Assembly: GCA_963676015.2 (NCBI GenBank)
Contig: CAXXUQ010000003.1
Span: 58,256 to 122,255, forward strand
Source: Prolixibacteraceae bacterium
GTDB taxonomy: Bacteria > Bacteroidota > Bacteroidia > Bacteroidales > Prolixibacteraceae
Direction: 5' to 3'
Length of the DNA stretch: 64,000 nucleotides
The notes beneath the pieces were generated by a model. The model did no database searches. It was not told the DNA's origin and saw nothing but the letters and a program-made list of their open reading frames with translations. The position numbers and the translations under genes are program-made. Of the stretch, positions 30,501 to 47,596 are shown piece by piece (positions within the stretch are counted from its first letter, which is position 1; the number at the start of each line of letters is the position of its first letter).

Positions 30501-30641
30501 CAAAAGCTGATGTTTACCAATACCGGTCTGTACAAAAAATTTCTTGGTGATGAAGATTTTCGCAACCGATACGAGGAATTTATTTTCGATATGCTTTGGC
30601 AGGAGGTGAAGGGGGTGCCCAATCAAATAAAAGCGCGTTAA
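27561..30641 (+). CDS. hsdR: type I R-M restriction subunit
   Basis: RLDLTIFVNGLPICTMELKN nuclease motif, QHSAGSGKS, IIDEAHSSQ, FTATPK, KYQTGFDQP, VQTLSRLNR. Confidence 0.96.
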   Translation: MPQATDTSEKGFQKLIVSQLIEKQGYVESFSADFDKEFAVNKDQLFRFIEQTQPEYWAYIKLRGERKFLSLLDAKIKKKGTVEVFRKGVAFNDKTVKLFYPQPNSSYNLKDRENFRSNIFSVTQELVYTTDQANRLDLTIFVNGLPICTMELKNAFTYQAVKNAIHQYMFDRKSKDKLLNQGRCMVHFAMDTTLVYMTGALNNNETTFFPFNKGLNDGSAHPPFGAGNPVNPDGIKTAYMWEKILTKGSLANIIEKFATFFPKKNMQIFPRYHQLKVVRNLLADAKEKGVGQRYLIQHSAGSGKSNSITWLAHQLIGLYNADTVTPLFDSVLVVTDRTNLDEQIRENIKDFAQVKRVVEAITGKAKDIKAIDPAEQVFSKTVHMRLALANNKKIITCTVQTFPFVLKVIQDMAAKKVAIIIDEAHSSQSGLAAASMNAVFANEKFQDLPTDEEGNINTEDLVNYLVESRKMLKNASYFAFTATPKNKTLETFGIKVPYINEHGEEHFQSYPFHTYSMKQAIEEEFILDVLKNYTTYKSFFKIKESEKASGEEEYDTKKANKKIRSFVEGHELAISDKARTMIDHFNKHVYFLIDHKAKAMVVCKSIEAAMKYKDAFDHYLKELNSPYKSIVAFSGKKKHYKTGEELTEEKMNAFSDGINDIPKQFKKLEYRFLIVADKYQTGFDQPLLHTMYVDKELSDVQAVQTLSRLNRAYKPAKKDTFVLDFFNITEDIKEAFKPYYTTTILSQETDANKLNALQEDLDEFQIYDEDQLLQFFKLYHNSNEKNDNRPKLDRIIDVIQACFAEDLIKDQQIDFKSKAKSFVRTYSYLAKLLDFNKTYWEMLWLVLKHLIPHLKIAEDAPDENILEVIDMASYSNRSQEKNIEIELVNEPGIVEPIPVGGGGGSSAPEYDKLKNIVKQFNERFAKDLEEFGENQAEATEILSVGIPQKLKENEATLKTIANSDKANAKDEADFQLKALMQKLMFTNTGLYKKFLGDEDFRNRYEEFIFDMLWQEVKGVPNQIKAR

Positions 30642-30658
30642 AAACCAAACTATAATCC

Positions 30659-31657
30659 ATGCAAACAGCCCTCTATCTCAATAACAAGCGGTTCACCGAA
30701 AAAGAATTTTCCAAGGAAAAAGAGTTGGAAGATCTGATGTTTCAGAATAGCAAAAATCTATTCGGTCAACATAGCATCATTATCGAAGCAAAAAAGAAGA
30801 TCGACCATAAAACATTAGGTGGTACTATTCCTGATGCTTTTCTGTTCGATCTCAACGACCCGGAGAATCCGGAGTTTTACCTCATTGAGGTAGAGTTGGC
30901 TAGCCATAGTTTTTTCAACCACATTTTTCCACAGATCACCAAATTCTTTGCTTTTTTCAAAAATTCGGTCAGCCAGAGCGAATTAATTGAGAAACTTTAT
31001 TCCCTGATCAATGCTGATGCAGGATTAAAGAAACAGTTTAAAGATCGTATCGGAAATAAGGAAATATTCAAATTCATTAAGGACACTATTGAGAACAGTC
31101 AAAACATTTTGTTGATGCTCGACAATGAGAAACCCGAGCTGCCTGAGATCATTAATACCTATACCGACACATGGGGTAAAATTGTTAAGCTTACTTTGCT
31201 AAAAGAATACACTCATAACGGCGAAAGCATCATCAGCCTGACTCCCGAATTTGCCAATATTGTTACAGTGGGACTCGCAACAGAGAAGGAAGCTCCCGGT
31301 TCATATACTGAAGAATATCATTTGGAAGGTACTTCCCCGGAAATAAAAGAAGCATACCGCACAATGCATGATGCACTAACCTTTCAGACAAAAGACATTA
31401 TTTTTAACCCGTTGCGCTACTATATTTCGTTGCGTAAAAAGAAGAACTTCGCCTTCATTCATGTCAAAAAATCAAAAATGACCATTGTTGCCATGATGGA
31501 TCAGCCTTCAATTGAAGAACGGATCAAACACCATAAAATCAATACCCTTGCCGCAAGTGTCCAGAAATTCTATAACGGTCCATGTGCTCAAATAGTAATC
31601 ACTGACAATTCAAATATGAACGAAATAATCAATCTACTAGTGGAAATACAAAAATAA
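30659..31657 (+). CDS. PD-(D/E)XK (NucS/EndoMS-like) nuclease fused to a DUF5655-like C-terminal domain
   Basis: EKELEDL, IPDAFL, LIEVEL in the N-terminal part; YTEEYHL...YISLRKKKNFAFIH.KK in the C-terminal part. Confidence 0.7.
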   Translation: MQTALYLNNKRFTEKEFSKEKELEDLMFQNSKNLFGQHSIIIEAKKKIDHKTLGGTIPDAFLFDLNDPENPEFYLIEVELASHSFFNHIFPQITKFFAFFKNSVSQSELIEKLYSLINADAGLKKQFKDRIGNKEIFKFIKDTIENSQNILLMLDNEKPELPEIINTYTDTWGKIVKLTLLKEYTHNGESIISLTPEFANIVTVGLATEKEAPGSYTEEYHLEGTSPEIKEAYRTMHDALTFQTKDIIFNPLRYYISLRKKKNFAFIHVKKSKMTIVAMMDQPSIEERIKHHKINTLAASVQKFYNGPCAQIVITDNSNMNEIINLLVEIQK

Positions 31658-31794
31658 TCTGATTTAATGGATTTTTTGAGGTGTAGCAACGTTCGTTCAA
31701 TTGAGGCAAAAGCAAAATTGTGGAGAAAGAGTGTGAATGAAAATGTTTTTAGTGAGGATAGGTTAAAGTCAAAATATTGTCTAAACATATTTGA

Positions 31795-33186
31795 ATGAGA
31801 GATACATTGTTTATTAGCCATGCAACTCCTGAAGATAATGAGTTTGCTATCTGGATTGGGTCAAGGCTGGAGATGTTGGGATATAAAGTTTGGATAGATA
31901 AAGATCGATTGCTTGGTGGTGAACCTTTTTGGAGAACAATTGACGGTGTGATTAGAAACGATGCAGTAAAAGTATTGTTAATCTATTCAAATAACATCTG
32001 TCTTTCACCAGGCATTCTTAAGGATGGCATAGATAAAGAATTTTCTCTTGCTGAAGCTATTGCGAAAAGTGAAGGTCTATCTGATTTTATAATACCTCTG
32101 AATATTGATAAAGATGTACCTTATAATTCCTTTATTGGTTCAAATAGACTTAATCAAATACCATTCTTTGGCAATTGGGCAGAAGGACTAAAACAGCTAT
32201 TGAAGAAATTGATTAATGACAACGTTCCCAAGCTAAAAGAGATACAAGAATCAACTTTTTCTGAATGGTATGAGAACGAATATATTTCAAACTGCTCAAT
32301 TATTTCGAAAAAAGAATTGTATTACTCTTCCTGGTGGCAAATTGCAGAAATGCCACCAAGGTTTTACATGTTTAAATTTACGAATGCTGAGCAAGCAAAA
32401 GCAGTTCGAAACGCTAATACATTGCCTGTTAGTCTTTTGTCTAACACTATATCAGCGTTTGATGAAAATATCAATTTTACTGTAACAAGAGAAGATGAAG
32501 AAATTGAGGTACTACCCGAAGCTACATATTCATTTTCTTTAACTGATATTCTTGACGGGTTTCTGTCAGAATCTTTTCCACAGCATAAGGATGCTGAAAA
32601 TCATTTCAAATGGTTATTGAGAGGTGTAATAACTAATTTGTTCAGGAATAAAGGACTGTGGAAACAAGAGATGTCAAATAAAAAATTTGTTTATTTTTTG
32701 CCAAGTTATAATGATTTAAAACCAGTTAGTTTTAAATATCCATTCTCTAGCCCAAATAAAAAGGATAAAAGAAAATCAATCGTTGGAAAATTCGAGGATA
32801 TCGGAAAGTGGCATTACGCTGTTTCGTGTCAAACTAGTTTGTCCCCAATTGTCGGGTTTTCATTAAAATCTCATTTGGTTTTTACCAGTGACGGTTTCAA
32901 ATTACTGCAAGATGAGAAAAAGGTTCATGGATATAGAAGGAAAAAGGGAAGACGATTCTTTAATGATGAATGGAGAGATCTGCAACTGGCATTTATTCAA
33001 AGATTAAAGGATAATGATAATGAAATAAAAATAAAGGTTTCAAATGAAGGATGGTATTTGAAAATGGAAAACTGGACTGAGATGTTTTGGAGCGATGTAG
33101 GTTATCGAGATCCTAGCACACCTATGGCTGTTGAAAAAATTGAAGATTTCTTTGAAGAACCTCATAACGAAGAAAATGATGATTGA
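31795..33186 (+). CDS. TIR-APAZ effector of a SPARTA system
   Basis: LFISHATPEDNEF.IW....L...GYKVW.D TIR start, catalytic Glu in DKEFSLA, FIIPL.ID; APAZ half with ELYYSSWW, WHYAVS, KSH.VFTSDG, RRKKGR.FFNDEWRD. Confidence 0.93.
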   Translation: MRDTLFISHATPEDNEFAIWIGSRLEMLGYKVWIDKDRLLGGEPFWRTIDGVIRNDAVKVLLIYSNNICLSPGILKDGIDKEFSLAEAIAKSEGLSDFIIPLNIDKDVPYNSFIGSNRLNQIPFFGNWAEGLKQLLKKLINDNVPKLKEIQESTFSEWYENEYISNCSIISKKELYYSSWWQIAEMPPRFYMFKFTNAEQAKAVRNANTLPVSLLSNTISAFDENINFTVTREDEEIEVLPEATYSFSLTDILDGFLSESFPQHKDAENHFKWLLRGVITNLFRNKGLWKQEMSNKKFVYFLPSYNDLKPVSFKYPFSSPNKKDKRKSIVGKFEDIGKWHYAVSCQTSLSPIVGFSLKSHLVFTSDGFKLLQDEKKVHGYRRKKGRRFFNDEWRDLQLAFIQRLKDNDNEIKIKVSNEGWYLKMENWTEMFWSDVGYRDPSTPMAVEKIEDFFEEPHNEENDD

Positions 33187-34693
33187 CCCTGAATTAAAAT
33201 ACCTTAGCGAACCTTTTCTAACTTTCAATAATGGGCAAAAGGCAATAGATCCGCGAGATGGATTAATGTTATTTGGTCCATTTTCACAAAAAAAAGTTAA
33301 AGGACAAAAGACTATTGGTCTTATTGGACCTGCGATTTTGCGAAATAGAATGTTAGAGTATTTAAAAAAGCTGCATGCACCGATTTTAAATTCCGATAGA
33401 TCTATTGCCCGACCTAGCTTCCCTGGACTTGAAACAATCTTTGATATTTATGTAAATTTCGAAAATGTTTCACAAATCGAAATTTCTCAAAATGAGATTG
33501 ATAAATATTTGAAATTTAGGGATTCACATCAGCGAGTTCACAATTGGACCAATTTATATGTTGACAAATTGAAAGAATATGCAGATAATGAGGAAATACC
33601 TGTTGACGTTTGGATAATTGTTATCCCAGAATGCATTTTCCAGTATGGAAGGCCAAATTCGAAGATACCAAAATCAGCCGATGTTATAAATGAAGGATTA
33701 AGTATTGCTAAAAGGAATTCACCTCAATTAGATATGTTTTTTCAGGACGAAATTGATCAATTGAAAAAAGCGTATGAATTTGAGATCAACTTTCACAATC
33801 AATTAAAAGCAAAGGTTTTATCAGATAAAATTATTACCCAAATTATTAGGGAAAGCAAAATCTCATATGAAGAGTTGTGGGATAATCCTGAAAAGATTGA
33901 TGCTGAACGTAAATTCGACAGTGCTAAAGCATGGAATATATCTACGGCCTTGTATTATAAGCTTGGTGGTTTACCATGGAAACTTGGAGATGTAAGAGAG
34001 AATGTATGTTATTTAGGTCTTGTTTATAAAAAGACTGATGCGAATGAGAAAAATAAAAATGCTTGTTGTGCTGCTCAAATGTTTTTAGATTCTGGGGATG
34101 GTATGGTATTTCGCGGGAATGTTGGTCCTTGGTGGAATCCAAAAACTGGTGAATTTCATTTATCAAAAAAGGATGCCACTGATATAATATCTCAATCTTT
34201 AGAGTCTTTTTACAATAACTCCGGACATTATCCAAAGGAGGTATTTATTCATGCAAAAACTTATTTTGATGACACAGAATGGGAAGGATTTGAGGAGGCT
34301 GCAAAGGGGAAATGTAAAATAATAGGTGTAAGGATTAGGGAAAATAATACATTCAAATTATACCGACAACAGCAATACTGTATTCCAAGAGGTATGATGT
34401 TGCATTTTGATGATAATAAGGCATATTTATGGACAAAAGGATTTATTCCGCGTTTTCAGACTCAAATTGGATTGGAAACCCCAAATCCGCTAGAAGTAGC
34501 CATAACACGCGGTAAATCAGAAGTTGAGATTGTTTGTAAGGATATTCTGGGATTAACGAAGTTGAATTATAATACTTGTATTTATGGTGATGGTGTTCCC
34601 GTAACATTAAAGTTTGCTGAAGCCGTAGGGGAAATTCTAACGTCAGGTAAAGATGTAAAAGGTGGAGTTTTGCCATTTAAACATTATATATAA
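33176..34693 (+). CDS. short prokaryotic Argonaute (MID-PIWI, catalytically inactive) of SPARTA
   Basis: EP.L.F..GQK..DPRDGL.LFGP, FHNQLKAK, AWNISTALYYKLGG.PWKL, CYLGLVYKK, ACCAAQMFLD.GDG, LTKLNYN.CIY.DG.PVTLKFA. Start overlaps the TIR-APAZ stop. Confidence 0.95.
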   Translation: MMIDPELKYLSEPFLTFNNGQKAIDPRDGLMLFGPFSQKKVKGQKTIGLIGPAILRNRMLEYLKKLHAPILNSDRSIARPSFPGLETIFDIYVNFENVSQIEISQNEIDKYLKFRDSHQRVHNWTNLYVDKLKEYADNEEIPVDVWIIVIPECIFQYGRPNSKIPKSADVINEGLSIAKRNSPQLDMFFQDEIDQLKKAYEFEINFHNQLKAKVLSDKIITQIIRESKISYEELWDNPEKIDAERKFDSAKAWNISTALYYKLGGLPWKLGDVRENVCYLGLVYKKTDANEKNKNACCAAQMFLDSGDGMVFRGNVGPWWNPKTGEFHLSKKDATDIISQSLESFYNNSGHYPKEVFIHAKTYFDDTEWEGFEEAAKGKCKIIGVRIRENNTFKLYRQQQYCIPRGMMLHFDDNKAYLWTKGFIPRFQTQIGLETPNPLEVAITRGKSEVEIVCKDILGLTKLNYNTCIYGDGVPVTLKFAEAVGEILTSGKDVKGGVLPFKHYI

Positions 34694-34786: not shown

Positions 34787-35035
34787 CTATTCATGTTTTC
34801 GGCAAGAAATTATGTATAGATATGATTCATCAATCGAATAAACTAATCGGTTTTGAATATCAATACTAATAGAAAATATACCGGTAGTCTTTCGTACTGA
34901 ACCGTTCGAAAAGAAATAATTCAATATAATCTCAATAATAGAATTAATTTTTCTCTTCCTTCTCTTGTCCATTTTTCCCCAAAGCATATAGTCATCCCAA
35001 GCTTCTGCTGAAAAGATAATATTCTTCTTTCTCAT
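34787..35035 (-). pseudogene. yoeB: degenerate YoeB/Txe toxin
   Basis: IFSAEAWDDYM.W...DKR...KIN..I and RLVY retained. The central GKPEPLK segment is missing; SRRI has become SISI and the C-terminal RYHY has become RKHE. Confidence 0.65.
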
Positions 35036-35043
35036 TTTTTTAC

Positions 35044-35304
35044 TTAATCCTTTAAGTCATTTAGAGATACTTTTTTGATTAAACTTTCCTTGATTTGCTC
35101 TAAGCTTCTTGCCAGATGTAAAGCATTATTTGTATTACTTATTAGGTGAAAAGTTTCCATAATCGTTTCATAATCATCTCTAGACATTATTATTACATCT
35201 TCGCCACGGGTTCTTTTTACAAGTATTTGGGAGTGGTCATCTGTAACCTGATCCAAATAAGACTTTAACTGACTTCGAAAATCAGAAAATGTTACTGATT
35301 TCAT
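35044..35304 (-). CDS. yefM: YefM/Phd antitoxin
   Basis: VTFSDFRSQLKSYLDQVTDDH..ILVKR..GEDVIIMS.DDYE...ET.HL. TGTAC operator-like cores upstream at about 35320-35380. Confidence 0.9.
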   Translation of the reverse strand: MKSVTFSDFRSQLKSYLDQVTDDHSQILVKRTRGEDVIIMSRDDYETIMETFHLISNTNNALHLARSLEQIKESLIKKVSLNDLKD

Positions 35305-35443
35305 ATTTACATATATAATTGTACGTAAAAGTATAAAATTAAGATAATTTAGTATATAAGTTGTACTTATAGATGTACATTTTATTTTGTGGTCAAATTT
35401 GTCCTTTTGAATTTCACATCAATATTTCACTTTTAAAAGAAAA

Positions 35444-35647
35444 ATGGCTAATTCTTTTAATAATGTGAAACGATCAATTCTTCTATTCTTAGGAGGTATT
35501 GAATTTTTTAGAGTTTTTCAAAGAGACGTTTTAGAATTTATAATTATCCTTTGTGCGATGATGCTCCTTATTTTGTTTGTTTTCTATTTGCTGACCTCAA
35601 AGCGATTCCTCAAAGCATACAGAAAAATCATGAAGGGGAGAAAATAG
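35444..35647 (+). CDS. small membrane protein
   Basis: 67 aa with a hydrophobic core and basic tail. Confidence 0.4.
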   Translation: MANSFNNVKRSILLFLGGIEFFRVFQRDVLEFIIILCAMMLLILFVFYLLTSKRFLKAYRKIMKGRK

Positions 35648-35747
35648 TCAAGAATTCTATTTGATTTTTTTCATGTAAAATTCAAATGTAGATTCTATAG
35701 TTATTCTCTGGTATTGTTACACTCAAATTTCCGACAAAGTTATTGAT

Positions 35748-35979
35748 CGCTTCACGGAACGGTAAAGGGGAACTCGCTTTTCGTGGCTCGTTTCCTTCGG
35801 ATGCGTTCAGTTTCATGGATTGCCCATTTCGGGCATGAAACTGACATGCACCCCGTTGACCTGATCCGTGACAGCTCAATGTTGGTACGCCAAAAATTTA
35901 AGTTTAGCGGCGTGCCAGATATTTCCCTAGTTAAATCGAAGGGAGCCATAATAAGTCCGCAGGGCAGCGGCACTTTCAC
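35748..35979 (+). repeat. structured leader, copy 1 (upstream of ardC)
   Basis: 135-bp core (35748-35882) differs from 37738-37872 at 5 positions. Two further hairpins are conserved in structure. Confidence 0.85.
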
Positions 35980-36894
35980 ATGAATACTTCATTCGACATT
36001 TATGAAATGGTTACAAACCTGATTATTGAACGCCTTGAAGCGGGTGTTGTCCCTTGGCAGATGCCCTGGAAAGCTGAAACCGGGTTCCCACAAAACATGG
36101 TTCACAAAAAAGCTTACCGTGGTTTTAATTTCTGGTTGCTGCTGACTGTTACAGATAAGTTTGGCTCTCCGTTCTTTCTAACCTTCAACCAGATCAAAGA
36201 ATTGGGTGGGCATGTTTTGAAAGGCGAAAAAGGTTTCCCGGTTGTGTTCTGGAAGCTGTTGGATAAGGAAGAAAAAGATGGAAGCCTTGACCATATCCCT
36301 TTCCTCCGTTATTACACCGTTTTTAACTTGAAACAAACCGAAGGTATCGATGAAAGCAAGATCCCAGCAACTGAAGCACACGACCATGTATTTGACCCGA
36401 TTGGTCAGGCAGAACAGTTAATCGAATTCTGGTATGATAGCCCTGAAATCAGGCTTGACCAGTCACACGCCTTTTATTCGCCTTCCGGTGATTACGTCGG
36501 GATGCCAAACCCACGGACTTTTTTCAGGGACGAACAATATTATTCGACACTTTACCACGAACTGGTTCATTCTACCGGGCATATCAATCGAACTGGAAGG
36601 CATGAAAAGCTTTCGGATCACAAATTCGGTTCTCAGGATTACAGCCAAGAAGAACTCGTAGCTGAATTAGGAGCCGCGTACTTGTGTTACATGACTGGTA
36701 TTCAAAATGCCACAATTGACAACAGCACTGCGTACATCAAAAGCTGGATTGGTAAATTCAAGGAAGATAAAAAGATGTTGTTGATTGCTTCTTCTCAGGC
36801 ACAAAAGGCAGTTGATTATATATTGGAACATCAGGTTCATCCCAACCAGGCGGCAAGTGCCGCTTTGGTTGACCAAATGGCGGAGGCAGTTTAG
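35980..36894 (+). CDS. ardC: ArdC-family ssDNA-binding anti-restriction protein (DUF1738 plus zincin-like domain)
   Basis: G.VPWQMPW, YRGFN, FLTFNQIKELGG.V.KGEKG, FLRYYTVFN..QTEG, YYSTLYHELVHSTGH..R, YS.EELVAELGAA.LC. Confidence 0.93.
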   Translation: MNTSFDIYEMVTNLIIERLEAGVVPWQMPWKAETGFPQNMVHKKAYRGFNFWLLLTVTDKFGSPFFLTFNQIKELGGHVLKGEKGFPVVFWKLLDKEEKDGSLDHIPFLRYYTVFNLKQTEGIDESKIPATEAHDHVFDPIGQAEQLIEFWYDSPEIRLDQSHAFYSPSGDYVGMPNPRTFFRDEQYYSTLYHELVHSTGHINRTGRHEKLSDHKFGSQDYSQEELVAELGAAYLCYMTGIQNATIDNSTAYIKSWIGKFKEDKKMLLIASSQAQKAVDYILEHQVHPNQAASAALVDQMAEAV

Positions 36895-36908
36895 CCTTCG
36901 CCTTTTTT
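36879..36908 (+). terminator. intrinsic terminator after ardC
   Basis: GGCGGAGGC-loop-GCCTTCGCC followed by T6. Confidence 0.75.
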
Positions 36909-36950
36909 AGCTCAAAATTTCACAGTTAGAAACAATTAAAGATTAAAGAT

Positions 36951-37658
36951 ATGGAACAGTCAAAAAGTTTTACCCAGTATATACTGCAAATCGGTTACAA
37001 GTATGGTTTGCATTCGGTATTTGATGATTTTCTTGAAATGGTTGTTTGCGCTTTATCTTTAGGGGCAAAGGAAGACCGTTACTTGGAGATTGTCCGTAAT
37101 TACGAAAAACCGGATGCCTACCTGATGGCTGAAGCTTTTGGCGCATTAGTTGTTGAAATGGACAACAATGGCGAAGGTTTGAAAGATGGGTTCGGTGACT
37201 TTTATATGGAATACCTTAGTCATGGACATAATGGACAGTTCTTTACCCCGGAACCGATTTGTGAAATGATGGCCAGGATTCTAAATCCGGCAGGTTTTGG
37301 AGAACGGGTTGCAGATTGTTGCTGTGGCTCTGGCCGGATGTTGCTGGCAGCAGCAAAAACAAGTCGAAACTCGTTATTCTTTGGGGCTGATATTGACCGA
37401 ACCTGTGCCATGATGTGTTTGATCAACCTATGCCTGAATGGACTTTTGGGCGAAGTCTGTTGGATGGATACGTTGATGAACCGTTTTTATGCAGGGTGGC
37501 GGGTTGAACTTCACCCCGAGAAGGGAGTTCCGTATATCAGGGAAATTACCGAACCTGAAAGTTACATGGTTCTAAGGCTACCTGAAAAGAAACAGGAACT
37601 CATTGTCCAACAAGCACCAGTAACTAAAGTAACTCAGCAGCTGATGTTTGAATTCTAG
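36951..37658 (+). CDS. N6-methylase-like (HsdM-like) protein lacking the NPPY catalytic motif
   Basis: GQFFTPEPIC, DCCCGSGRML (SAM-binding motif I), GADID..CA.MC..NL. No (N/D/S)PP(Y/F) anywhere in the ORF. Confidence 0.8.
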   Translation: MEQSKSFTQYILQIGYKYGLHSVFDDFLEMVVCALSLGAKEDRYLEIVRNYEKPDAYLMAEAFGALVVEMDNNGEGLKDGFGDFYMEYLSHGHNGQFFTPEPICEMMARILNPAGFGERVADCCCGSGRMLLAAAKTSRNSLFFGADIDRTCAMMCLINLCLNGLLGEVCWMDTLMNRFYAGWRVELHPEKGVPYIREITEPESYMVLRLPEKKQELIVQQAPVTKVTQQLMFEF

Positions 37659-37676
37659 GGGCAATGCCCCTTTTTT
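37657..37676 (+). terminator. intrinsic terminator
   Basis: AGGGGCA-A-TGCCCCT followed by a T-tract. Confidence 0.65.
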
Positions 37677-37737
37677 GTTCGTTCAATTTTTTGTTAGGTA
37701 AAATCACTCCATTTAAAATTGCAGGCAAAATTATTTA

Positions 37738-37942
37738 CGCTTCACGGAACGGTAAAGGGGAACTCGCCTTTCGTGGCTCGTTTCCTTCGGATGCGTTCAG
37801 TTTCATGGATTGCCCATTCCGGGCATAAAACTGACATGCACCCCGTTGACCTAATCCGTGATAGCTCAATGTCCGGTTACGCCGAAATTTTAACCGGCGT
37901 GCCAGATGCCAATATAAATCTGTAAGGCAGCAGTAAATAACT
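37738..37942 (+). repeat. structured leader, copy 2
   Basis: Near-identical to 35748-35882, with covarying downstream hairpins. Confidence 0.85.
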
Positions 37943-38302
37943 ATGAATAATGCAGCTAAGAAACTCGATGCTGAAAGTGTAGAACAACCTAAAACTTCTT
38001 TGGAAGTTGTAAAGAAAGATGAAAAAGAAGTTGCTGAAGTTCCTTCATTGGAGAAACGCATCCAGAAAGTGGAAGACCTAAGCATGCTCATCGAGAAGTG
38101 GCGCAAGCTCACCGAAACCAGAAGAAATCTCCAAACCTTCTCCCTGGGTGCTGACGGGTTGGGAGCAACAGTGTTCCTTCGGGACGCATCAGGAAAAGAG
38201 TTTAAAACTTCCAACACCCCTGTGGTATCCGCAGTGATGGAAGAAATCAAAACGACTTTGGATGAGAGGATCAAAGAAGTTGAAACCCAGATCAAATTTT
38301 GA
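37943..38302 (+). CDS. small acidic/helical hypothetical ICE protein
   Basis: 119 aa with coding-like composition; has its own structured leader and terminator. Confidence 0.7.
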   Translation: MNNAAKKLDAESVEQPKTSLEVVKKDEKEVAEVPSLEKRIQKVEDLSMLIEKWRKLTETRRNLQTFSLGADGLGATVFLRDASGKEFKTSNTPVVSAVMEEIKTTLDERIKEVETQIKF

Positions 38303-38307
38303 AAATA

Positions 38308-38332
38308 GGGAGGCAAAAGCCTCCCATTTTTT
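38308..38332 (+). terminator. intrinsic terminator
   Basis: GGGAGGC-AAAA-GCCTCCC-ATTTTTT. Confidence 0.8.
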
Positions 38333-38441
38333 GTCGCTTATAATTATATTCTATAGATACCTATGACTGTGATTGTATTTTATAATTTTTCATTTATTTT
38401 TCTTGAAAAGATTGCATGATTGAAATAATAAGCTTTACTTT

Positions 38442-38459
38442 GTTCGTCATTTCACGAAC
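38442..38459. promoter_or_regulatory. putative ArsR operator GTTCGT-N6-ACGAAC
   Basis: Palindrome just upstream of arsR, repeated at 40173-40190. Confidence 0.7.
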
Positions 38460-38467
38460 TACGAACA

Positions 38468-38791
38468 ATGCAAAAAGAAATAATTACAGAAGAACAGCAA
38501 AAGGCAGCCCGTTATGCCAAGGCGATGGGACATCCCATCCGTATGTATGTGCTTGACTTACTTTCAAAACAGTCATGTTGTTACAGTGGGGATTTAACCG
38601 AGGATCTTCCAATCGTCAAATCAACCCTTTCCCAACATCTGAAAGAACTGAAAGATGCTGGCTTAATTCAGGGTGAAATTGAAGCCCCACGAGTTAAATA
38701 TTGTCTGAATAAAGAAAACTGGAAGGAAGCACAAGATTTATTCCGCAAATTTCTGAAAATGGATATTGAAGAACAAATTCAAAAATATTAA
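38468..38791 (+). CDS. arsR: ArsR/SmtB repressor 1
   Basis: AKAMGHPIR..., SCCYSGDL, KSTLSQHLKELKDAGLI.G. Confidence 0.92.
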   Translation: MQKEIITEEQQKAARYAKAMGHPIRMYVLDLLSKQSCCYSGDLTEDLPIVKSTLSQHLKELKDAGLIQGEIEAPRVKYCLNKENWKEAQDLFRKFLKMDIEEQIQKY

Positions 38792-38804
38792 GAACAAAAT
38801 AATT

Positions 38805-39038
38805 ATGGAAATTAAAATTTTAGGCCCTGGTTGCCCAAAGTGTAAAACACTTGAAAAGTTGACCCGCGATGTGGTAGAACAAAATAGTATTGATGCCACT
38901 GTCACCAAAGTAGAGGACATCATGGAAATCATGAAATACGGAGTAATGACTACTCCAGCTCTCGTGGTAAACGGAAAAGTAGAAATCAAAGGACGTGTTC
39001 CTTCTTCAGACGAAATCAAGCAAGTATTAACACGATAA
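38805..39038 (+). CDS. small thioredoxin-like protein (MTH895/ArsE family)
   Basis: IKILGPGCPKCKTL...KVEDIMEIMKYGVMTTPALVVNG. Confidence 0.9.
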   Translation: MEIKILGPGCPKCKTLEKLTRDVVEQNSIDATVTKVEDIMEIMKYGVMTTPALVVNGKVEIKGRVPSSDEIKQVLTR

Positions 39039-39048
39039 AACATTCAGC

Positions 39049-39453
39049 ATGAAAAAAGTTATTTTCTTAAGTTTTGCCCTGATACTGATGAGCAGCTTGA
39101 TCTGCAATTCTCAAACCGTAAAAAAGGAAACGGCAGTTTCGGGAAATCAGATAGAAGCCTATTATTTTCATAACACAGTACGTTGTGAAACATGCAGAAC
39201 AGTGGAAGCTCAGGCAAAAGCTGATTTATTAAACCTTTATGGCGATCAGGTTACATTTAAGGCTTTAAATCTTGAGGACGATGCAACCAAACCGATTGCC
39301 GAAAAATTAAAGGTTTCAGGTCAAACACTGTTAATTGTAAAAAATGATCAGAAAATTAACCTTACCAACGAAGGATTTCTGTATGCTGTAACCAACCCTG
39401 CGAAATTTAAATCAATTATAAAAGCAAAGGTTGACCCACTACTAGATTTATAA
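39049..39453 (+). CDS. ArsF-family periplasmic thioredoxin-like protein
   Basis: Signal peptide; YYFHNTVRCETCRTVE. Confidence 0.8.
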   Translation: MKKVIFLSFALILMSSLICNSQTVKKETAVSGNQIEAYYFHNTVRCETCRTVEAQAKADLLNLYGDQVTFKALNLEDDATKPIAEKLKVSGQTLLIVKNDQKINLTNEGFLYAVTNPAKFKSIIKAKVDPLLDL

Positions 39454-39456
39454 ATC

Positions 39457-40155
39457 ATGGAGTTCCTGACCAATCTTCTTGAAAACAGCACCATGCCATG
39501 GCTTTCGGCATTGGTGCTGGGATTAATGACTGCAATCAGTCCTTGCCCGCTGGCCACCAATATCACGGCGGTTGGTTTTATCAGCAAGGACATTGAAAAC
39601 CGCAACCGTGTTTTCGTTAACGGGTTGCTTTATACGCTTGGACGTGCAATTTCTTACACTGCAATTGCCCTGATCATTTATTTTGGAGCCGATCAGTTTA
39701 AGTTTTCGGGCTTCTTCCAGCTTTACGGCGAAAAAATTGTAGGCCCATTGCTGATTATCATTGGATTGTTTATGCTCGATGTGATAAAAATTAAGTTTCC
39801 TGGCATGAGCGGATTGACTTCAAAAATGGAAGCCAAGACCAAATGGGGATTTTTTGATGCCATTTTGCTCGGAATGATTTTCGCTTTGGCTTTCTGTCCA
39901 TACAGCGGAGTACTTTATTTTGGCATGCTCGTTCCAATGACTGTTGCAAGTGCATCAGGCTTATATCTTCCTATCGTTTTTGCTTTGGCTACAGGTATTC
40001 CGGTGATCATTTTTGCATGGATTCTGGCCTTTTCGGTTAGCTCAATTGGTGGAGTTTATAACAAGATGAAGAACTTCGAAATTTGGTTCCGCCGAGTGAT
40101 TGCCGTACTCTTTATTGCAGTGGGTATCTATTACATTATCAGGGTATTCTTTTAA
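39457..40155 (+). CDS. ArsG-family (DsbD/CcdA-like) permease
   Basis: LGLMTAISPCPLATNI, FALAFCPYSGVLYFG. Confidence 0.85.
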   Translation: MEFLTNLLENSTMPWLSALVLGLMTAISPCPLATNITAVGFISKDIENRNRVFVNGLLYTLGRAISYTAIALIIYFGADQFKFSGFFQLYGEKIVGPLLIIIGLFMLDVIKIKFPGMSGLTSKMEAKTKWGFFDAILLGMIFALAFCPYSGVLYFGMLVPMTVASASGLYLPIVFALATGIPVIIFAWILAFSVSSIGGVYNKMKNFEIWFRRVIAVLFIAVGIYYIIRVFF

Positions 40156-40172
40156 AAAAATTTGATTTCTAT

Positions 40173-40190
40173 GTTCGTTATTTTACGAAC
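40173..40190. promoter_or_regulatory. second GTTCGT-N6-ACGAAC operator
   Basis: Identical half-sites to 38442-38459; lies upstream of the arsP-like permease. Confidence 0.7.
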
Positions 40191-40209
40191 AATTTTATAC
40201 AGTACGAAT

Positions 40210-41232
40210 ATGAAAAACATAAAAAATGTGATCTGGCTACCTCTCGCCCTTTTACCTGTTTGGTATATAATTTATCACAACCTTCAACCGATAACCGATT
40301 GGCTCATTGACACGGTTTTGGGAATGACCAAAGGGGCACATCTTACTGAAGCTCTCCGGTTCTTCGTTTTCGAGTTTCCCAAAGTGATGCTTTTACTTAC
40401 GCTCATAATATTCTTTGTCGGAATTATCCGCACCTACTTTACTCCTGAACGAACCCGAAAAGCCCTTGAAGGGAAAAAAACATTTACCGGCAATGTGATG
40501 GCTGCGACGCTGGGTATTGTCACCCCGTTTTGTTCGTGTTCAGCTATCCCACTGTTTTTAGGGTTTGTTGAATCAGGTGTTCCGCTTGGTGTAACGTTTT
40601 CTTTCCTGATTGCAGCTCCCATGATTAACGAAGTAGCCATTATTCTTTTGTATGGCATGTTTGGCTGGCAGGTCGCCGCTATTTATGTGGGAACCGGATT
40701 AGCCATTGCGATTCTTGCAGGCTGGATTATTGGACTACTGAAACTCGAAAAATGGGTAGAACCCTGGGTATATCAGACCCATATGGGAGATAGCGGATCG
40801 GAAGAAGAAAAATTAACTTTTGTCAGGCGGATAAATCTTGGCTATGATGCCATAAAAGAAATTGTAGGCAAAGTTTGGATTTATGTAGCACTTGGAATCC
40901 TGGTTGGCGCTGGCGCTCATGGATATGTTCCTGAAGATTTTATGGCTGCCTTAATGGGCAAATCGGCCTGGTATTCCATCCCATTATCTATCCTGATTGG
41001 TATCCCGTTGTATTCCAACGCAGCCGGGATCGTTCCGATTGTGTCGGTGCTGATTGAAAAAGGGGCATCACTTGGAACCGCTTTGGCCTTTATGATGGCA
41101 GTGATTGGGCTTTCATTACCCGAAATGGTAATACTCCGGAAAGTTCTAAAACTCCCGCTCATATTCACTTTCATTGGAGTCGTCGGGGTCGGAATCATGA
41201 TCGTTGGATATTTATTCAATTATATCTTCTAA
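40210..41232 (+). CDS. arsP: ArsP / DUF318-family permease
   Basis: TPFCSCSAIPLF.GF...GVPLGVTFSFL.AAPMINEV, IGIPLYSNAAG, LSLPEMVIL. Confidence 0.85.
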   Translation: MKNIKNVIWLPLALLPVWYIIYHNLQPITDWLIDTVLGMTKGAHLTEALRFFVFEFPKVMLLLTLIIFFVGIIRTYFTPERTRKALEGKKTFTGNVMAATLGIVTPFCSCSAIPLFLGFVESGVPLGVTFSFLIAAPMINEVAIILLYGMFGWQVAAIYVGTGLAIAILAGWIIGLLKLEKWVEPWVYQTHMGDSGSEEEKLTFVRRINLGYDAIKEIVGKVWIYVALGILVGAGAHGYVPEDFMAALMGKSAWYSIPLSILIGIPLYSNAAGIVPIVSVLIEKGASLGTALAFMMAVIGLSLPEMVILRKVLKLPLIFTFIGVVGVGIMIVGYLFNYIF

Positions 41233-41235
41233 GAA

Positions 41236-41724
41236 ATGAAAACAACAGAAAAACCCACATTACAAGACTTTCATATTGAAGGTGTAAAACACATCAACCC
41301 GGCTGATGCGCTGGAAACTATAAATAAAGGCGAAGCAGTAATGCTTGATGTACGCGAATTGAACGAAGTCAAGTTGGAAAGTGTGCCATTGGACCGGGTT
41401 ATCAATCATCCAATGTCTGTGATCATGGACCGGTTGCCATACATTGCAAAAGACCAGAATATTATTGTGGCTTGTCCCGGCGGTGTTCGTAGCGTAAAGG
41501 TTGCCAATTTACTTGTCATGCATGGCTACCCCCATGTGGCTAATCTCGACGGCGGATTAATGCTTTGGAAAGCAAAAGGATTGCCCTATGACAGCAGCAT
41601 TACTTCAGTAGGTTGTGGATGTAATTCAGGTACTCCATCAAAATCGAAATTTACATCACTTAAAATCGACTTAGGTGAAAATCTTAGTCGAAATATGGAC
41701 TTCAAAAATTTGAAGCGGATTTGA
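41236..41724 (+). CDS. rhodanese-domain protein
   Basis: MLDVRE..E, IIVACPGGVRS, VANLDGGL..W. Confidence 0.85.
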   Translation: MKTTEKPTLQDFHIEGVKHINPADALETINKGEAVMLDVRELNEVKLESVPLDRVINHPMSVIMDRLPYIAKDQNIIVACPGGVRSVKVANLLVMHGYPHVANLDGGLMLWKAKGLPYDSSITSVGCGCNSGTPSKSKFTSLKIDLGENLSRNMDFKNLKRI

Positions 41725-41753
41725 AATAAATCGGTCAGTAAAAACCAAAAATC

Positions 41754-42125
41754 ATGGAAACATCCGATTACAATAAAACTGCGCTGAAACTTTCTCCCAT
41801 GCTAAATGCTCTTTCGCATCCGGCAAGGTTGCAAATCATGTTACATCTGGCAAAGTATAATGGTTGTCAGGCTGGAAGTATTTCAGGAAAACTGCCACTT
41901 GCAAAATCAACAGTTTCGGAACATTTGAGCAAACTAAAGGAGGCAGGTTTAATTACTTGTGTTGTTGATGGAATTTGTTCAAACTATCAGATTAGCGATG
42001 AAGGTTACGAAATGGTAAAAGCAAGTTTTAATGAGTTTTTGGATCTGATGGAAGAAAGTCGGGCAAAACGCAGCGATTGTTGCCCGGTTCATCAGGGTAA
42101 CACACAAGTATTCTCGCACAGTTGA
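41754..42125 (+). CDS. ArsR/SmtB repressor 2
   Basis: LNALSHPARLQI, KSTVSEHLSKLKEAGLI; C-terminal CC. Confidence 0.88.
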   Translation: METSDYNKTALKLSPMLNALSHPARLQIMLHLAKYNGCQAGSISGKLPLAKSTVSEHLSKLKEAGLITCVVDGICSNYQISDEGYEMVKASFNEFLDLMEESRAKRSDCCPVHQGNTQVFSHS

Positions 42126-42166
42126 ATTGCTCTAAAAGAGTTGTAATTCAAAACATTATAAAAATC

Positions 42167-43069
42167 ATGGACGAACATCGCCATCACGCACCCAAAATTT
42201 CGAACCTAAACAGAGCATTTATCATTGGCATTGCCATTAATGCACTGTATGTGATTATTGAGTTTGGTGCGGGATTGTACTACGATTCGCTGGCTTTGAT
42301 TTCCGATGCCGGTCACAACCTGACCGATGTGGCATCGTTGGCCCTTGCCTTGCTTGCTTTCCGTCTGGCCAAAGTTAAGTCGAATGATAAATTCACGTAT
42401 GGGTATCGTAAATCAACCATTTTGGTTTCGTTGATTAATTCGGTGGTGCTTTTTGTCGCTATTGGCGGAATTCTATGGGAAAGTTTCAGCCGGTTGCATA
42501 ATCCGGTAGTAGTTGAAGGACTTCCCATCTCGGTGGTTGCCGGAATCGGAATTGTGATCAATGCTGTTTCTGCCTTCCTGTTTTTCAAAGACAAAGACAG
42601 CGACCTGAACGTGAAAGGAGCTTACCTGCACCTGATGGCCGATGCCGCAGTTTCGCTGGGAGTAGTGATTTCAGGAGTACTGATTTTCTTTTTCCAACTC
42701 TACTGGCTCGATTGGGTGATGAGTCTGGTGATTGTTCTGGTAATCTTCTATTCAACCTGGAACCTGTTCAAAGACAGCCTTTCCCTTACCCTTGATGGTG
42801 TACCAAAAGGCATCAACTTTAATGAGGTTGTTTCAGAAATAAAGGAAGTGGAAGGTGTTATCGACGTTCACCACCTGCATGTTTGGGCCATCAGTACCTC
42901 ACAAAATGCCATGACAGCACATATTCTCATTCCTTCGAATACAGGAATGGAACAACAAAACCTAATCAAGAATAAAATCAAACACGAGCTGGAGCATGTG
43001 AACATTCATCATGCCACGCTTGAGTTTGAAACTGAAGATGAAAATTGTATTGATACAAATGCAATTTAA
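42167..43069 (+). CDS. czcD: cation diffusion facilitator (CzcD-like) Zn/Co/Cd exporter
   Basis: SLALISDAGHNL.D, FTYGY.K..IL, GAYLHLMADA, HHLHVW.I. Confidence 0.92.
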   Translation: MDEHRHHAPKISNLNRAFIIGIAINALYVIIEFGAGLYYDSLALISDAGHNLTDVASLALALLAFRLAKVKSNDKFTYGYRKSTILVSLINSVVLFVAIGGILWESFSRLHNPVVVEGLPISVVAGIGIVINAVSAFLFFKDKDSDLNVKGAYLHLMADAAVSLGVVISGVLIFFFQLYWLDWVMSLVIVLVIFYSTWNLFKDSLSLTLDGVPKGINFNEVVSEIKEVEGVIDVHHLHVWAISTSQNAMTAHILIPSNTGMEQQNLIKNKIKHELEHVNIHHATLEFETEDENCIDTNAI

Positions 43070-43070
43070 A

Positions 43071-43847
43071 ATGAAAACTATGGAAACGACACAATCAAAT
43101 TCAGTAAAAATTAAGCAGATACTCGGTTTAAATACTTCTATGGTGGGCGTAAAATTCATCTTTTCAGAAAACGAAATTCCTTCTGGGGTTGAAAAGTTAA
43201 ACGGACACCGCTATTGCCAGGCATTGATGAAAGCACGCCATGGTTCGCCCGTCCTGCTTGATGCAGAAGGAATTGCCTGTCCGGCAGCGGCAGCCGCCTT
43301 TGGGTTTAAACCTTTGCCGGATGGTTTGAAAACTGGAAAAGGTCTGGTAGGCTTCGGCATTGTGAATAAAGATTCAACCGGAAAAGCGATGTTTGAAGGT
43401 ATGACCACTTTACCACAAGGAAAACTCAACGCATTGTATCTGTTTCCGCTCGAAGAAGCTACAATTGAGCCAGATATTGTGGTAGTGGAAGACGAAACCG
43501 AAAAGCTGATGTGGTTTGCCTTGGCTAACCTGAATGTGAAAGGCGGGCATCGGGTGGAAAGCAGTACGGCCATTTTGCAGGCAACCTGCGTGGATGCAAC
43601 AATCATTCCGTATTTACAACAAAAATTCAACATGAGCATGGGCTGTTATGGTTGCCGCGATGCAACCGACATTTGCCCCAACGAAACGGTTTTGGGTTTT
43701 CCATTCAAAGACTTTGATGCCATTGCCCAAAGCATTGAATTTCTAAGTCGGAAAGCCATTCCCAATTCAAGGGGCAAGAATGCTTTGGCTATGCTCAAAC
43801 GTAAAGAAGCAGAATCAATAAGTAAAAATGATCCTTTTACAAATTAG
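43071..43847 (+). CDS. DUF169-family protein
   Basis: RYCQALM.AR.G, CPAAA.AFG, QA.CVDA...PY, GCYGCR.AT. Confidence 0.85.
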   Translation: MKTMETTQSNSVKIKQILGLNTSMVGVKFIFSENEIPSGVEKLNGHRYCQALMKARHGSPVLLDAEGIACPAAAAAFGFKPLPDGLKTGKGLVGFGIVNKDSTGKAMFEGMTTLPQGKLNALYLFPLEEATIEPDIVVVEDETEKLMWFALANLNVKGGHRVESSTAILQATCVDATIIPYLQQKFNMSMGCYGCRDATDICPNETVLGFPFKDFDAIAQSIEFLSRKAIPNSRGKNALAMLKRKEAESISKNDPFTN

Positions 43848-43851
43848 TCTT

Positions 43852-44103
43852 ATGGAAAAATTCAAACATCTTGATGCAAAAACAATTGAATTAGCGGGTA
43901 TTGCAGCTTCAGTTGCAGGAGGTTGCCGACCTTGTCTTGATTTTCACTTTAAAAAGGCTCTTGAATTAGGTTGTTCATTGGAACAGGCTAAAGAAGCAAT
44001 CCAGCTTGGGAAAATGATTAAGCAGCGACCTATTAATGATATTTATGAACATGCTGATAAGTTAATTGCCAATAATAAATCATTTAAAATTAATGAATTA
44101 TGA
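43852..44103 (+). CDS. carboxymuconolactone decarboxylase/AhpD-family protein
   Basis: ELAGIAASVAGGCRPCLDFH.KKA..LG.S.EQ. Confidence 0.88.
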   Translation: MEKFKHLDAKTIELAGIAASVAGGCRPCLDFHFKKALELGCSLEQAKEAIQLGKMIKQRPINDIYEHADKLIANNKSFKINEL

Positions 44104-44504
44104 AAAAATCTATTTTGTTTTTTCTGGTTGCTTTTCTGACCATCTCAGGAGCAACATTCGGCAAATCGAAAGAAAACGTTGAAGTCCTTTATTTTAAAGC
44201 AAAACAATGTGCCTGTAAAACCATGACGTGCAACGCACTTGAGGATCAGGTAAAATCTGTAATCAATAAGGAATTCCCAGACAAGAACATCATATTTAAA
44301 CGAGTTTGGCTGAATGAAAAGGAAAACGATGCACTTATTCAAAAATATAGTGCCAAACCACAAACAGTTGTCTTGGTAAAAATGAAAAAAGACAAAGAAA
44401 CAGTAACCGAATTGACAGAAATTGTGAAAGATTTTGCAACGAAACAAAACAAAGAAAAGTTTGAAACGGAGCTGAAAGAAAAAATCAGTGCAAACTTAAA
44501 GTAA
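44100..44504 (+). CDS. periplasmic thioredoxin-like protein (ArsF-like paralogue)
   Basis: Signal peptide; VLYFKAKQCACKTMTCNALE. Confidence 0.65.
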   Translation: MKKSILFFLVAFLTISGATFGKSKENVEVLYFKAKQCACKTMTCNALEDQVKSVINKEFPDKNIIFKRVWLNEKENDALIQKYSAKPQTVVLVKMKKDKETVTELTEIVKDFATKQNKEKFETELKEKISANLK

Positions 44505-44528
44505 TCTATCACTCTGAAATAAAGTAAA

Positions 44529-45284
44529 ATGCTGTATATCATAGTCGCAGTTATTATCGCTGTCGCCTCTTTCGTATTTGCCATGCTGGGTTTGGGTGGT
44601 GGAATGGTTTATGTCCCCGTTCTCAACTGGGCCGGATTCGATATGAAGGAGGTCGCCATTCCGTTGGGGTTGTTGCTCAATGGATTAAATACTGCCCTGG
44701 TTCTTATTCCGTTTGCCCGCAAAAAACTGGTGGATTGGAAAGGGGGTTCGGTTATGGCTACTACCGCCCTGATTGCTTCTCCATTGGGAGCAATGATGAG
44801 CGGTCATGTTCCGGTGCAAACCCTGAAAATATTGTTTGCCGCGATGGTGGTTGCAGCCGCACTGCGTACACTTTGGGCTTCGAAACAAGCCGAACCTGAA
44901 GCGATGATGCCCTTGAAAAAGCGGAGTATAATTGGATTTTTTACTGGAAGTTTTGCCGGTTTTATTGGCGGGATGTTGGGACTGGGAGGTGGTTTTATTA
45001 TCGCTCCAATCCTGATGATGATGGGCTACAAAACTAAGGAAGCTGCGGCTACAACAGCATTGGTAGTCACTTTTTCATCGTTCTCCGGATATTTTGGGCA
45101 CGTTGCCCAAGGAGAAATGAACTGGCCTTTAACTATCGCGGTGGTCATTGCTGTGATTATTGGTTCGCAGCTTGGCGGAAGGTACATGACACAAAAAGCG
45201 AAGTCTAAGCAAGTAAAAATGATCTATGCCATCGTGCTCTTGTTGATTGCTATAAAAATGGTATTTGATGTCTTTTATAAATAA
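44529..45284 (+). CDS. TauE/SafE-family exporter
   Basis: Duplicated GLGGG..(Y/I).P motifs; polytopic. Confidence 0.9.
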   Translation: MLYIIVAVIIAVASFVFAMLGLGGGMVYVPVLNWAGFDMKEVAIPLGLLLNGLNTALVLIPFARKKLVDWKGGSVMATTALIASPLGAMMSGHVPVQTLKILFAAMVVAAALRTLWASKQAEPEAMMPLKKRSIIGFFTGSFAGFIGGMLGLGGGFIIAPILMMMGYKTKEAAATTALVVTFSSFSGYFGHVAQGEMNWPLTIAVVIAVIIGSQLGGRYMTQKAKSKQVKMIYAIVLLLIAIKMVFDVFYK

Positions 45285-45302
45285 ATATAAAAAATTAAGA
45301 AA

Positions 45303-45905: not shown

Positions 45906-45918
45906 CAAAATAATAAAA

Positions 45919-47594: not shown

Positions 47595-47596
47595 AA

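Follow-up and report, generated by a model that had tools for sequence, protein, structure and literature searches.

A repeated, covarying leader cassette ahead of ardC in a Bacteroidota integrative conjugative element: a candidate fold-back single-stranded DNA promoter

Introduction

Why does one mobile element carry the same long structured leader twice, ahead of two different genes, and does this leader act as RNA or as DNA? The question is raised by a 64,000-nucleotide (nt) stretch from a Prolixibacteraceae bacterium (assembly GCA_963676015.2, contig CAXXUQ010000003.1, positions 58,256 to 122,255), hereafter the window, which is a CTnDOT-like integrative conjugative element (ICE). The leader precedes ardC and a second gene, orf119, whose product belongs to no Pfam family. 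An original prediction, made from the letters of the window, held that it is either a Bacteroidota signal on single-stranded DNA (ssDNA), serving as promoter or for priming, or else a cis-regulatory RNA of a new kind. The prediction depended on the repeat being neither a known Rfam family nor the end of an insertion sequence (IS) or miniature inverted-repeat transposable element (MITE), and on its stems covarying.

ssDNA promoters explain how incoming plasmids activate anti-defence genes before restriction. To our knowledge, they have been documented so far only for IncF and IncI plasmids of enterobacteria, and no report of them in Bacteroidota was found in the literature that we searched. ICEs of Bacteroidota rank among the major carriers of resistance genes, both in the gut and in environmental communities. 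It has been suggested that ssDNA promoters are tuned to the sigma factor of the host (PMC12672017). Our analysis supports the prediction and favours its ssDNA-promoter half: with a probability of roughly 0.6, judged from sequence comparison, the leader would be a Bacteroidota-type fold-back ssDNA promoter, a functional analogue of the Frpo/ssi elements that is unrelated to them in sequence and differs from them in architecture.

Results

A repeated cassette at a fixed distance from a few gene families

The 135-nt cores of the direct repeat (35748-35882 and 37738-37872) are 96% identical, and a 27-nt core probe had exactly two occurrences in the window and none in 100 shuffles, which bears out the predicted duplication. 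The repeated unit had been put at about 200-230 nt; it proved larger, with full cassettes of about 260 nt at about 35716-35979 (copy 1, ahead of ardC) and 37712-37942 (copy 2, ahead of orf119). Terminator-like sites follow ardC, the adjoining methylase gene and orf119, as expected from the proposal that each unit ends in a terminator.

Retrieval based on ArdC yielded 50 loci, almost all from genomes of Prolixibacteraceae and other Bacteroidia. A covariance model built from a manually annotated seed recovered 97 plus-strand copies from these loci and the window. More divergent copies were supplied by ArdC homologues of about 60% identity, and a pattern scan of IMG/VR contigs added 36 further copies. 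About 130 distinct relatives from Prolixibacteraceae-like genomes and metagenomes were gathered in total, with two copies in the window, up to three per ArdC locus and up to five on a single contig (L073). All 97 plus-strand copies lie on the same strand as the genes that they precede. The next gene encodes ArdC for 45 copies, the orf119 product for 26, a 144-amino-acid DUF6573 protein for 20 and RadC for one, and the gap between element and ATG is fixed at either 54-55 or 30-31 nt. The region upstream of ArdC in locus L052 gave no model match.

The high copy number would suit a non-functional dispersed repeat or the end of a miniature transposable element. However, orientation and distance to the start codon of a few gene families are fixed, which disfavours an IS or MITE end; compensatory changes are extensive (see below), and the copies show no terminal inverted repeats or target duplications and no IS or plasmid match. 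We therefore consider this explanation very improbable. Specifically, a blastn search of 72,556 PLSDB plasmid records at word size 11 gave no match to the leader, and Rfam 15, including STAXI (RF01728) and radC (RF01754), gave no match at gathering score in the whole window. At E values up to 10, the core remained uncovered in a search of 35300-38500, with only weak matches of other families elsewhere. Thus, neither an Rfam family nor an IS or MITE end was found, and the stems do covary.

Two further observations concern the loci themselves. At L009:1129-2330, an IS110-family transposase gene lies between a cassette and its gene, so that this insertion has parted one cassette copy from its target gene. 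Furthermore, a full cassette and an ArdC gene with 84% identity to that of the window are found on L028 (MVQL01000080.1), a contig assigned to Pelotomaculum (Firmicutes); this is probably a binning error rather than a cross-phylum transfer.

A branched fold maintained by compensatory changes

Minimum-free-energy folds of the plus strand of both copies (z = -4.3 and -4.5) contain every element of the long nested stem that had been predicted (TCACGGA/TCCGTGA, GGGG/CCCC, TCAGTTT/AAACTGA and TGCCC/GGGCA), then a TACGCC/GGCGTG hairpin, and another hairpin just before each ATG. Folded as DNA, the minus strand reached -36.4 kcal/mol in each copy (z = -3.8 and -2.4). Comparison of the relatives supports an outer stem, P0/P1/P1b, leading to a four-way junction formed with a variable P2, a 3-base-pair hairpin P2a and a P3 of variable length. 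After the junction come a conserved AGCTCAAT segment, the TACGCC/GGCGTG hairpin (P4) and, just before the ATG, the last hairpin (P5).

Among 77 distinct close relatives, 95% of cells were standard pairs, compared with 22-43% when the partners were slid, and 17 pairs had changed on both sides. The divergent relatives (33 distinct) gave 87% against 31-45%, with 34 of 50 pairs changed on both sides, including 7 of the 10 pairs of P1. Covariation was seen in P1, P2, P2a and P3, and in L053 P1 is wholly replaced with compensation (ATCCCGAC/GTCGGGAT).

The two terminal hairpins fared differently. P4 is present as predicted, with loops that differ between the window copies, but its pairs do not covary in the close family, and the L034 and L060 subfamilies lack it. 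The compensatory change noted in P5, on the other hand, turned out to be one of many: 14 stem variants exist, 12 of them fully complementary, and 93 of 97 distinct leaders share the invariant loop A(A/G)GGCA. The 4-base-pair stem of P5 covaries freely and stands 9-15 nt before the ATG in every gene class. P5 looks like a shared post-transcriptional signal; Bacteroidota rarely use Shine-Dalgarno sequences.

A further long-range helix, Pd, joins the 5' flank to the P4 loop. Upstream conservation of the element ends exactly where the copy 1 flank starts, and flank and loop are complementary at 13 of 15 positions in the type-1 consensus. The main type has a C x A mismatch in this helix, repaired by a change of the flank C to T in L024 and of the loop A to G in L034 and L003. 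An energy test with DNA parameters gave a modest signal for pairing of the flank with the tail (the P4 loop and its neighbours), at -7.1 versus -5.7 kcal/mol, and was replaced by a count over the best 14-nt ungapped window, which gave 10.9 matched positions versus 8.0 for shuffled flanks (z about 3). This pairing is kept by differing sequences across subfamilies, and P4 competes with it.

Apart from these helices, the loop of the same P2 hairpin is either CAAA or TTTG, depending on the copy (CCCGGCAAACCGGG versus CCCGGTTTGCCGGG; L003:3769, L007:3768 and L010:3769 versus L009:924 and L008:6758). The hairpin is thus wholly inverted, which points to hairpin flipping or template switching at the DNA level.

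A good plus-strand fold, covariation of every helix and a fixed distance to the ATG are also what a structured 5' untranslated region (UTR) would show. The cassette could then be a new cis-regulatory leader (e.g., protein-binding, antitermination or stability), transcribed from an unrecognised upstream promoter or by read-through, with the four-way junction, the flank-to-loop pseudoknot, P4 and P5 all acting in the mRNA. We regard this as unlikely, though clearly the strongest of the competing explanations; if it is right, the cassette defines a new, fairly complex leader RNA family with about 130 known members. The absence of an Rfam match tells somewhat against it, and the promoter evidence bears on it more directly.

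A -33/-7 pair of boxes on the minus strand, at the stem base

Bacteroidota promoters have the consensus TAnnTTTG at -7 and TTTG near -33 (PMC7366714); a sigma-70 scan is uninformative for this phylum. A search of the plus strand for such promoters found an exact TAnnTTTG in 2 of 75 upstream regions, at positions that were not fixed, and matches with one mismatch at about chance level. Directly upstream of the cassettes stand terminators that end the upstream genes. The caveat that the core has no TAnnTTTG is true of its plus strand; on the minus strand, an exact -7 box lies immediately 5' of each window core.

This box is a constant feature of the family. An exact TAnnTTTG occupies one fixed place in 75 of 82 distinct close copies, with differences confined to the two n positions (TAAC, TAAA, TAAT or TATC followed by TTTG). 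Across 129 distinct copies, 123 show CTT(T/G)N, 18-21 nt and then the box with at most one mismatch; the box is exact in 107 of the 129, and its variation falls almost wholly at the n positions. The spacing between the -33 and -7 elements is 20 nt in 75 copies, 19 nt in 35, 21 nt in nine and 18 nt in four, and TTTA serves as the -33 element in 95 copies, with TTGA, TTGC or TTGT in 27. The arrangement persists in the L060/L072 subfamily despite an unrelated spacer sequence and is kept in L053 as well, even though P1 is wholly exchanged there. The region upstream of ArdC in L053 gave no model match and holds a degenerate relative (TTGT, 21 nt, TAACTCTG). Short variants of ~120 nt without the inner junction retain the stem and the box. 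It is the minus-strand TAnnTTTG at the foot of the stem, with a -33-like TT(T/G) 18-21 nt upstream in 123 of the 129 copies, that favours the ssDNA promoter.

A 5'-UTR RNA leaves this opposite-strand sigma-A box, varying at its two free positions, and its -33 partner unexplained. It also lacks a conserved plus-strand promoter, has terminators just upstream, and does not account for the short variants that have lost the junction and still keep stem and box.

ardC, the methylase gene and orf119 all have the minus strand as their template. On the folded minus strand, the boxes lie on the gene-distal 3' arm in the order junction, -33, spacer, -7, stem base, and the other arm runs 5'-wards into ardC antisense. 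With this polarity, a polymerase bound there would use the minus strand as template and make plus-sense RNA. In the box, the first T forms the last P0 pair, and the seven bases after it are part of an internal loop (7 x 8 nt in divergent subfamilies, about 11 x 13 nt in the window copies) that the flank-to-tail helix closes. Taking sigma-70 open complexes as the basis for comparison, a box in such a loop would resemble a pre-melted promoter whose duplex-to-single-strand junction falls at -12/-11. Frpo-type promoters likewise require the transferred strand to be the template (PMC9849209). As a check of the geometry, F plasmid Frpo2 was folded; its hairpin forms (z = -7.4), and its -35/-10 boxes could not be placed by eye, so that the geometry argument rests on strand polarity and on that report.

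Could the boxes simply be an ordinary leftward promoter in duplex DNA, giving an antisense or insulating transcript against the upstream gene, beside an unrelated hairpin? The duplex elements are complete and canonically spaced. Nevertheless, no more than about 15-20 nt past the box are conserved, the upstream contexts are not related to one another, and no conserved minus-strand open reading frame or terminator is present. Such a promoter would leave three things unaccounted for: the placing of the box precisely at the base of the stem, the covariation of its spacer with a partner about 110 nt or more away, and the pairing of the flank with the tail. We consider a leftward promoter improbable, more so than any other explanation except the dispersed repeat.

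A DNA mini-hairpin motif in the junction and the balance of wobble pairs

P2a bears on whether the fold acts as DNA or as RNA. In nearly all copies, its plus-strand loop is TTC, which makes the minus-strand loop GAA. The C-G pair closing the loop hardly ever varies, and compensatory changes are seen in the outer pairs (TCC/GGA, CAC/GTG, CGC/GCG and TGC/GCA). The minus strand thus presents C-GAA-G, with an exact GCGAAGC in four copies. The d(C-GAA-G) motif is an extraordinarily stable DNA mini-hairpin that accepts CC/GG stems, and its RNA version is weak; such GAA mini-hairpins occur at the G4 and ssiA priming sites and in N4 hairpin promoters, and have been proposed to resist single-strand-binding protein (SSB) and to mark initiation sites (PMC13037366). 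The triloop is therefore unremarkable as RNA and a known hyperstable motif as minus-strand DNA, which again argues against a leader RNA. Reading P2a as a UUCG tetraloop, which would be an RNA signature, was ruled out, as the covarying pairs fit the triloop register alone.

The counts of G.T against A.C pairs were also considered as a strand test. Over all cells they stand at 191 to 34, a seemingly strong plus-strand bias, 153 of these cells coming from two invariant pairs. The core helices hold about 48 G.T and 40 A.C outside one conserved G.T and are thus balanced, so that the test does not decide for the core; the bias is confined to P4 (129 versus 10 on the plus strand) and P5 (8 versus 1). 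Read as G.U, both excesses suit a 5'-UTR RNA. For P5 the excess indicates an RNA-level hairpin, certain in its own right, which fits both readings because P5 lies downstream of any plausible start site.

How the cassette may work

Under the ssDNA promoter that we favour, the minus strand, probably the strand transferred by conjugation, would fold back on itself at the core once it is single-stranded. The P1b-P1-P0 stem would make the region from -33 to -12 duplex, with the gene-distal arm reading CTT(T/G)N, 18-21 nt, TAnnTTTG, while the bases from A(-11) to G(-5) would stay unpaired in the internal loop, closed on its far side by the AT-rich flank-to-tail helix. Duplex up to -12 and an unpaired box in a loop would make the fold resemble a pre-melted open complex, to which RNA polymerase with the primary sigma factor of the host may bind. 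Reading the minus strand towards its 5' end, the enzyme would give a plus-sense mRNA with a predicted 5' end near 35892-35896 (copy 1) or 37884-37888 (copy 2). Running on from a conserved leader with P5, this mRNA would cover ardC and the methylase gene (copy 1) or orf119 (copy 2). The fold may be nucleated, and locked against SSB, by the four-way junction, which carries the C-GAA-G mini-hairpin on its minus strand. Once the complementary strand is made, the boxes would point away from the genes and expression would stop.

The same RNA could also prime synthesis of the complementary strand. A pure single-strand initiation or origin signal (ssi/sso type), in which the folded minus strand recruits RNA polymerase or primase for priming and has no role in gene expression, would share the fold, the boxes and the mini-hairpin found at the G4 and ssiA sites, and Frpo itself has been described as both promoter and primer site (PMC12672017). 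Priming, however, needs neither the fixed gap to the start codon, nor the conserved P5 leader, nor one copy per operon, and a priming-only role appears improbable, if marginally less so than a leftward promoter.

The wider proposition stands at about even odds: on this comparative evidence, Bacteroidota conjugative elements may own a separate class of ssDNA promoter, with a branched fold, a -33 element in duplex and a pre-melted -7 box, and the anti-restriction genes behind it would be switched on solely while the DNA newly received by the recipient is still single-stranded. If so, a TAnnTTTG-based version would show that the ssDNA-promoter strategy arose more than once. It would also provide a sequence signature for locating establishment genes in Bacteroidota ICEs and a natural fork-junction or bubble template for the study of the unusual Bacteroidota sigma-A.

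Several points weigh against the fold-back promoter. The whole case is built on sequence. The -33 element never has the full consensus TTTG, and the fold leaves the -7 box unpaired, whereas in descriptions of Frpo both boxes are restored to duplex. When the cassette itself is double-stranded, its boxes make up an intact promoter that faces away from the genes. The 18-21 nt spacing may instead reflect a helix-length constraint of an RNA. P4 looks like an RNA or plus-strand hairpin and fits an ssDNA model poorly, because the predicted start site falls inside it, and a conserved plus-strand G.T (G.U in RNA) at the base of P3 also agrees better with a leader RNA. The caveat that the genes do not adjoin the origin of transfer (oriT) stands: the module lies about 15 kb downstream of the relaxase gene, with a type I restriction-modification (R-M) system, a TIR-domain gene and a toxin-antitoxin pair in between, and is not in a leading region. 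If the relaxase belongs to the lagging region, as a general rule has it (PMC11541004), the module is expected to enter after roughly 40 kb, late rather than first; the same paper notes that leading-region enrichment is not seen in some MOB types. We infer the transferred strand from the orientation of the relaxase gene alone; this gene is on the plus strand, so the minus strand would be transferred if the relaxase enters last (PMC11541004).

Comparison with known systems

The closest functional parallels are the Frpo/ssi elements (F Frpo1 and Frpo2, ColIb-P9 ssi1-3 and pESBL classes 1-3, on IncF and IncI1 plasmids). Like the cassette, they are non-coding stretches, of 150-330 nt, repeated before establishment or anti-defence operons, which in their case include ssb, psiB, ardA, klcA and a methylase (PMC11541004, PMC9849209, PMC12672017). 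In both, the template strand folds, or is predicted to fold, into a stem presenting host sigma boxes, expression is expected to be limited to the time before complementary-strand synthesis, and a priming role is possible (PMC11541004, PMC9849209, PMC12672017). IncF and IncI plasmids carry several ssDNA promoters ahead of ssb, psiB, ardA and klcA operons (PMC12672017, PMC9849209), and the multiple co-oriented cassettes ahead of ArdC, DUF6573, orf119 and RadC genes parallel them, which counts in favour of an ssDNA promoter. In contrast to Frpo/ssi, the cassette has no sequence similarity to them, uses -33/-7 instead of -35/-10 boxes, and folds into a branched four-way junction rather than one long hairpin. 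Its -7 box is unpaired between two helices, with only the -33-like element and the first T paired, and it is carried by an ICE in a module away from oriT.

N4 early promoters and the G4/ssiA origins share with the cassette small hyperstable DNA hairpins with a G-A-A-type loop closed by C-G, located on the template strand. In the cassette, this mini-hairpin forms an arm of the junction, about 30 nt upstream of the -33 element, and not the recognition site itself, and the implied polymerase is the host sigma-A holoenzyme instead of a phage RNA polymerase or a primase. STAXI (RF01728) resembles the cassette in being structured, often tandem and located near ssb, antirestriction, topoisomerase and integrase genes, and its authors also weighed action as ssDNA against action as RNA (PMC2864571). 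Unlike the cassette, STAXI is enterobacterial and consists of repeated pseudoknots with UUCG tetraloops, with no promoter boxes described, and it gave no match at E = 10. Fork-junction and pre-melted bubble templates used in vitro, duplex to -12 and with the non-template -10-type element single-stranded from -11, are bound tightly by sigma region 2. The cassette would be alike in both respects; these laboratory templates are two-stranded, whereas the cassette would be a natural version made of one strand folding back.

Feature map and gene neighbourhood

The features of both cassettes and the main genes of the ICE are listed in Table 1. The relaxase gene and nearly all other genes of the window are on the plus strand.

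Table 1 Cassette features and ICE genes, in window coordinates. Pd denotes the flank-to-loop helix; single numbers are given where one coordinate was recorded.
Feature	Position	Strand	Remarks
Copy 1 5' flank, GTTACACTCAAATTT	35716-35730		5' strand of long-range helix Pd; partner 35894-35908
Copy 1 exact -7 box, TAACTTTG (TAnnTTTG)	35735-35742	-	First T is the last P0 base pair; rest unpaired
Copy 1 core	35742-35880		P0 35742-46/35876-80; P1 35749-58/35865-75; P1b 35761-70/35851-61
Copy 1 junction arms			P2 35771-92; P2a 35793-35801; P3 35803-49
Copy 1 -33-like TTTA	35763-35766	-	Within P1b, 20 nt upstream of -7 box
Copy 1 P2a, TCC-GAA-GGA	35793-35801	-	d(C-GAA-G) mini-hairpin motif
Copy 1 P4 hairpin, GGTACGCC...GGCGTGCC	35884-35916	+	Loop 35894-35908 is the Pd 3' strand
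Copy 1 P5 hairpin, CCGC-AGGGCA-GCGG	35957-35970	+	Ends 9 nt before ardC ATG
Copy 2 5' flank, TTTAAAATT	37712-37720		Partner is P4 loop AATTTTAA, 37886-37893
Copy 2 exact -7 box, TAATTTTG	37726-37733	-	-33-like TTTA at 37753-37756, 19 nt upstream
Copy 2 core, P0 to P3	37733-37870		P2a 37783-37791
Copy 2 P4 hairpin and Pd 3' strand	37875-37903	+
Copy 2 P5 hairpin, CTGT-AAGGCA-GCAG	37920-37933	+
RteC	2707	+
TraG/VirB4 ATPase	7857	+
Coupling protein	15948	+
MobC/NikA-like accessory gene, then relaxase gene	19585-20910	+	Used for the transferred-strand inference
MobA/VirD2-type relaxase	19993-20910	+
Type I R-M system	21069-30641	+
TIR-domain gene	31795-33186	+
YefM/YoeB toxin-antitoxin pair	34787-35304	-	Just upstream of cassette 1; exception among listed ICE genes, all others plus strand
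ardC	35980-36894	+	ArdC N-terminal domain and zincin-like metallopeptidase domain; terminator 36879-36902
Short N6-adenine DNA methylase-like gene	36951-37658	+	235 amino acids; terminator 37657-37671
orf119	37943-38302	+	No Pfam family; terminator 38308-38325
Tyrosine integrase	57259	+

The 235-amino-acid methylase-like protein matches the first third of the N6_Mtase profile, and its gene is placed after the ardC terminator without a cassette of its own. The pairing of ArdC with a following short methylase also occurs in the distant loci L051 and L053, and this methylase may act as a decoy or, as an orphan enzyme, in protection.

The ICE contains a defence island (21069-34693) in the stretch from the relaxase gene to the ArdC module. 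Its R-M parts are HsdM (21069), a PD-(D/E)XK nuclease gene (23274), HsdS (24382) and HsdR (27561), and it further contains DUF5655, the TIR-domain protein (31795-33186) and a 520-amino-acid protein without a Pfam family. YefM/YoeB is the sole clear minus-strand gene pair among the genes examined. A second minus-strand TAnnTTTG, TACATTTG, lies at 35683-35690, between this pair and cassette 1. Nearby, a sub-threshold match to Gut-1 RNA (35406-35458, minus strand; 22.9 bits against a gathering score of 50, E = 0.25) is driven by a repeated GTGAAAT and is probably due to chance.

Downstream of the module, 38468-57000 is occupied by metal and arsenic resistance cargo, comprising ArsR, a DsbD_2 protein, an ArsP-type permease, a cation efflux protein, DUF169, TauE, ArsA and an SBF/ACR3-like carrier. 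In the relative L054, the ArdC module and the integrase gene directly adjoin, so this cargo has apparently been inserted between them.

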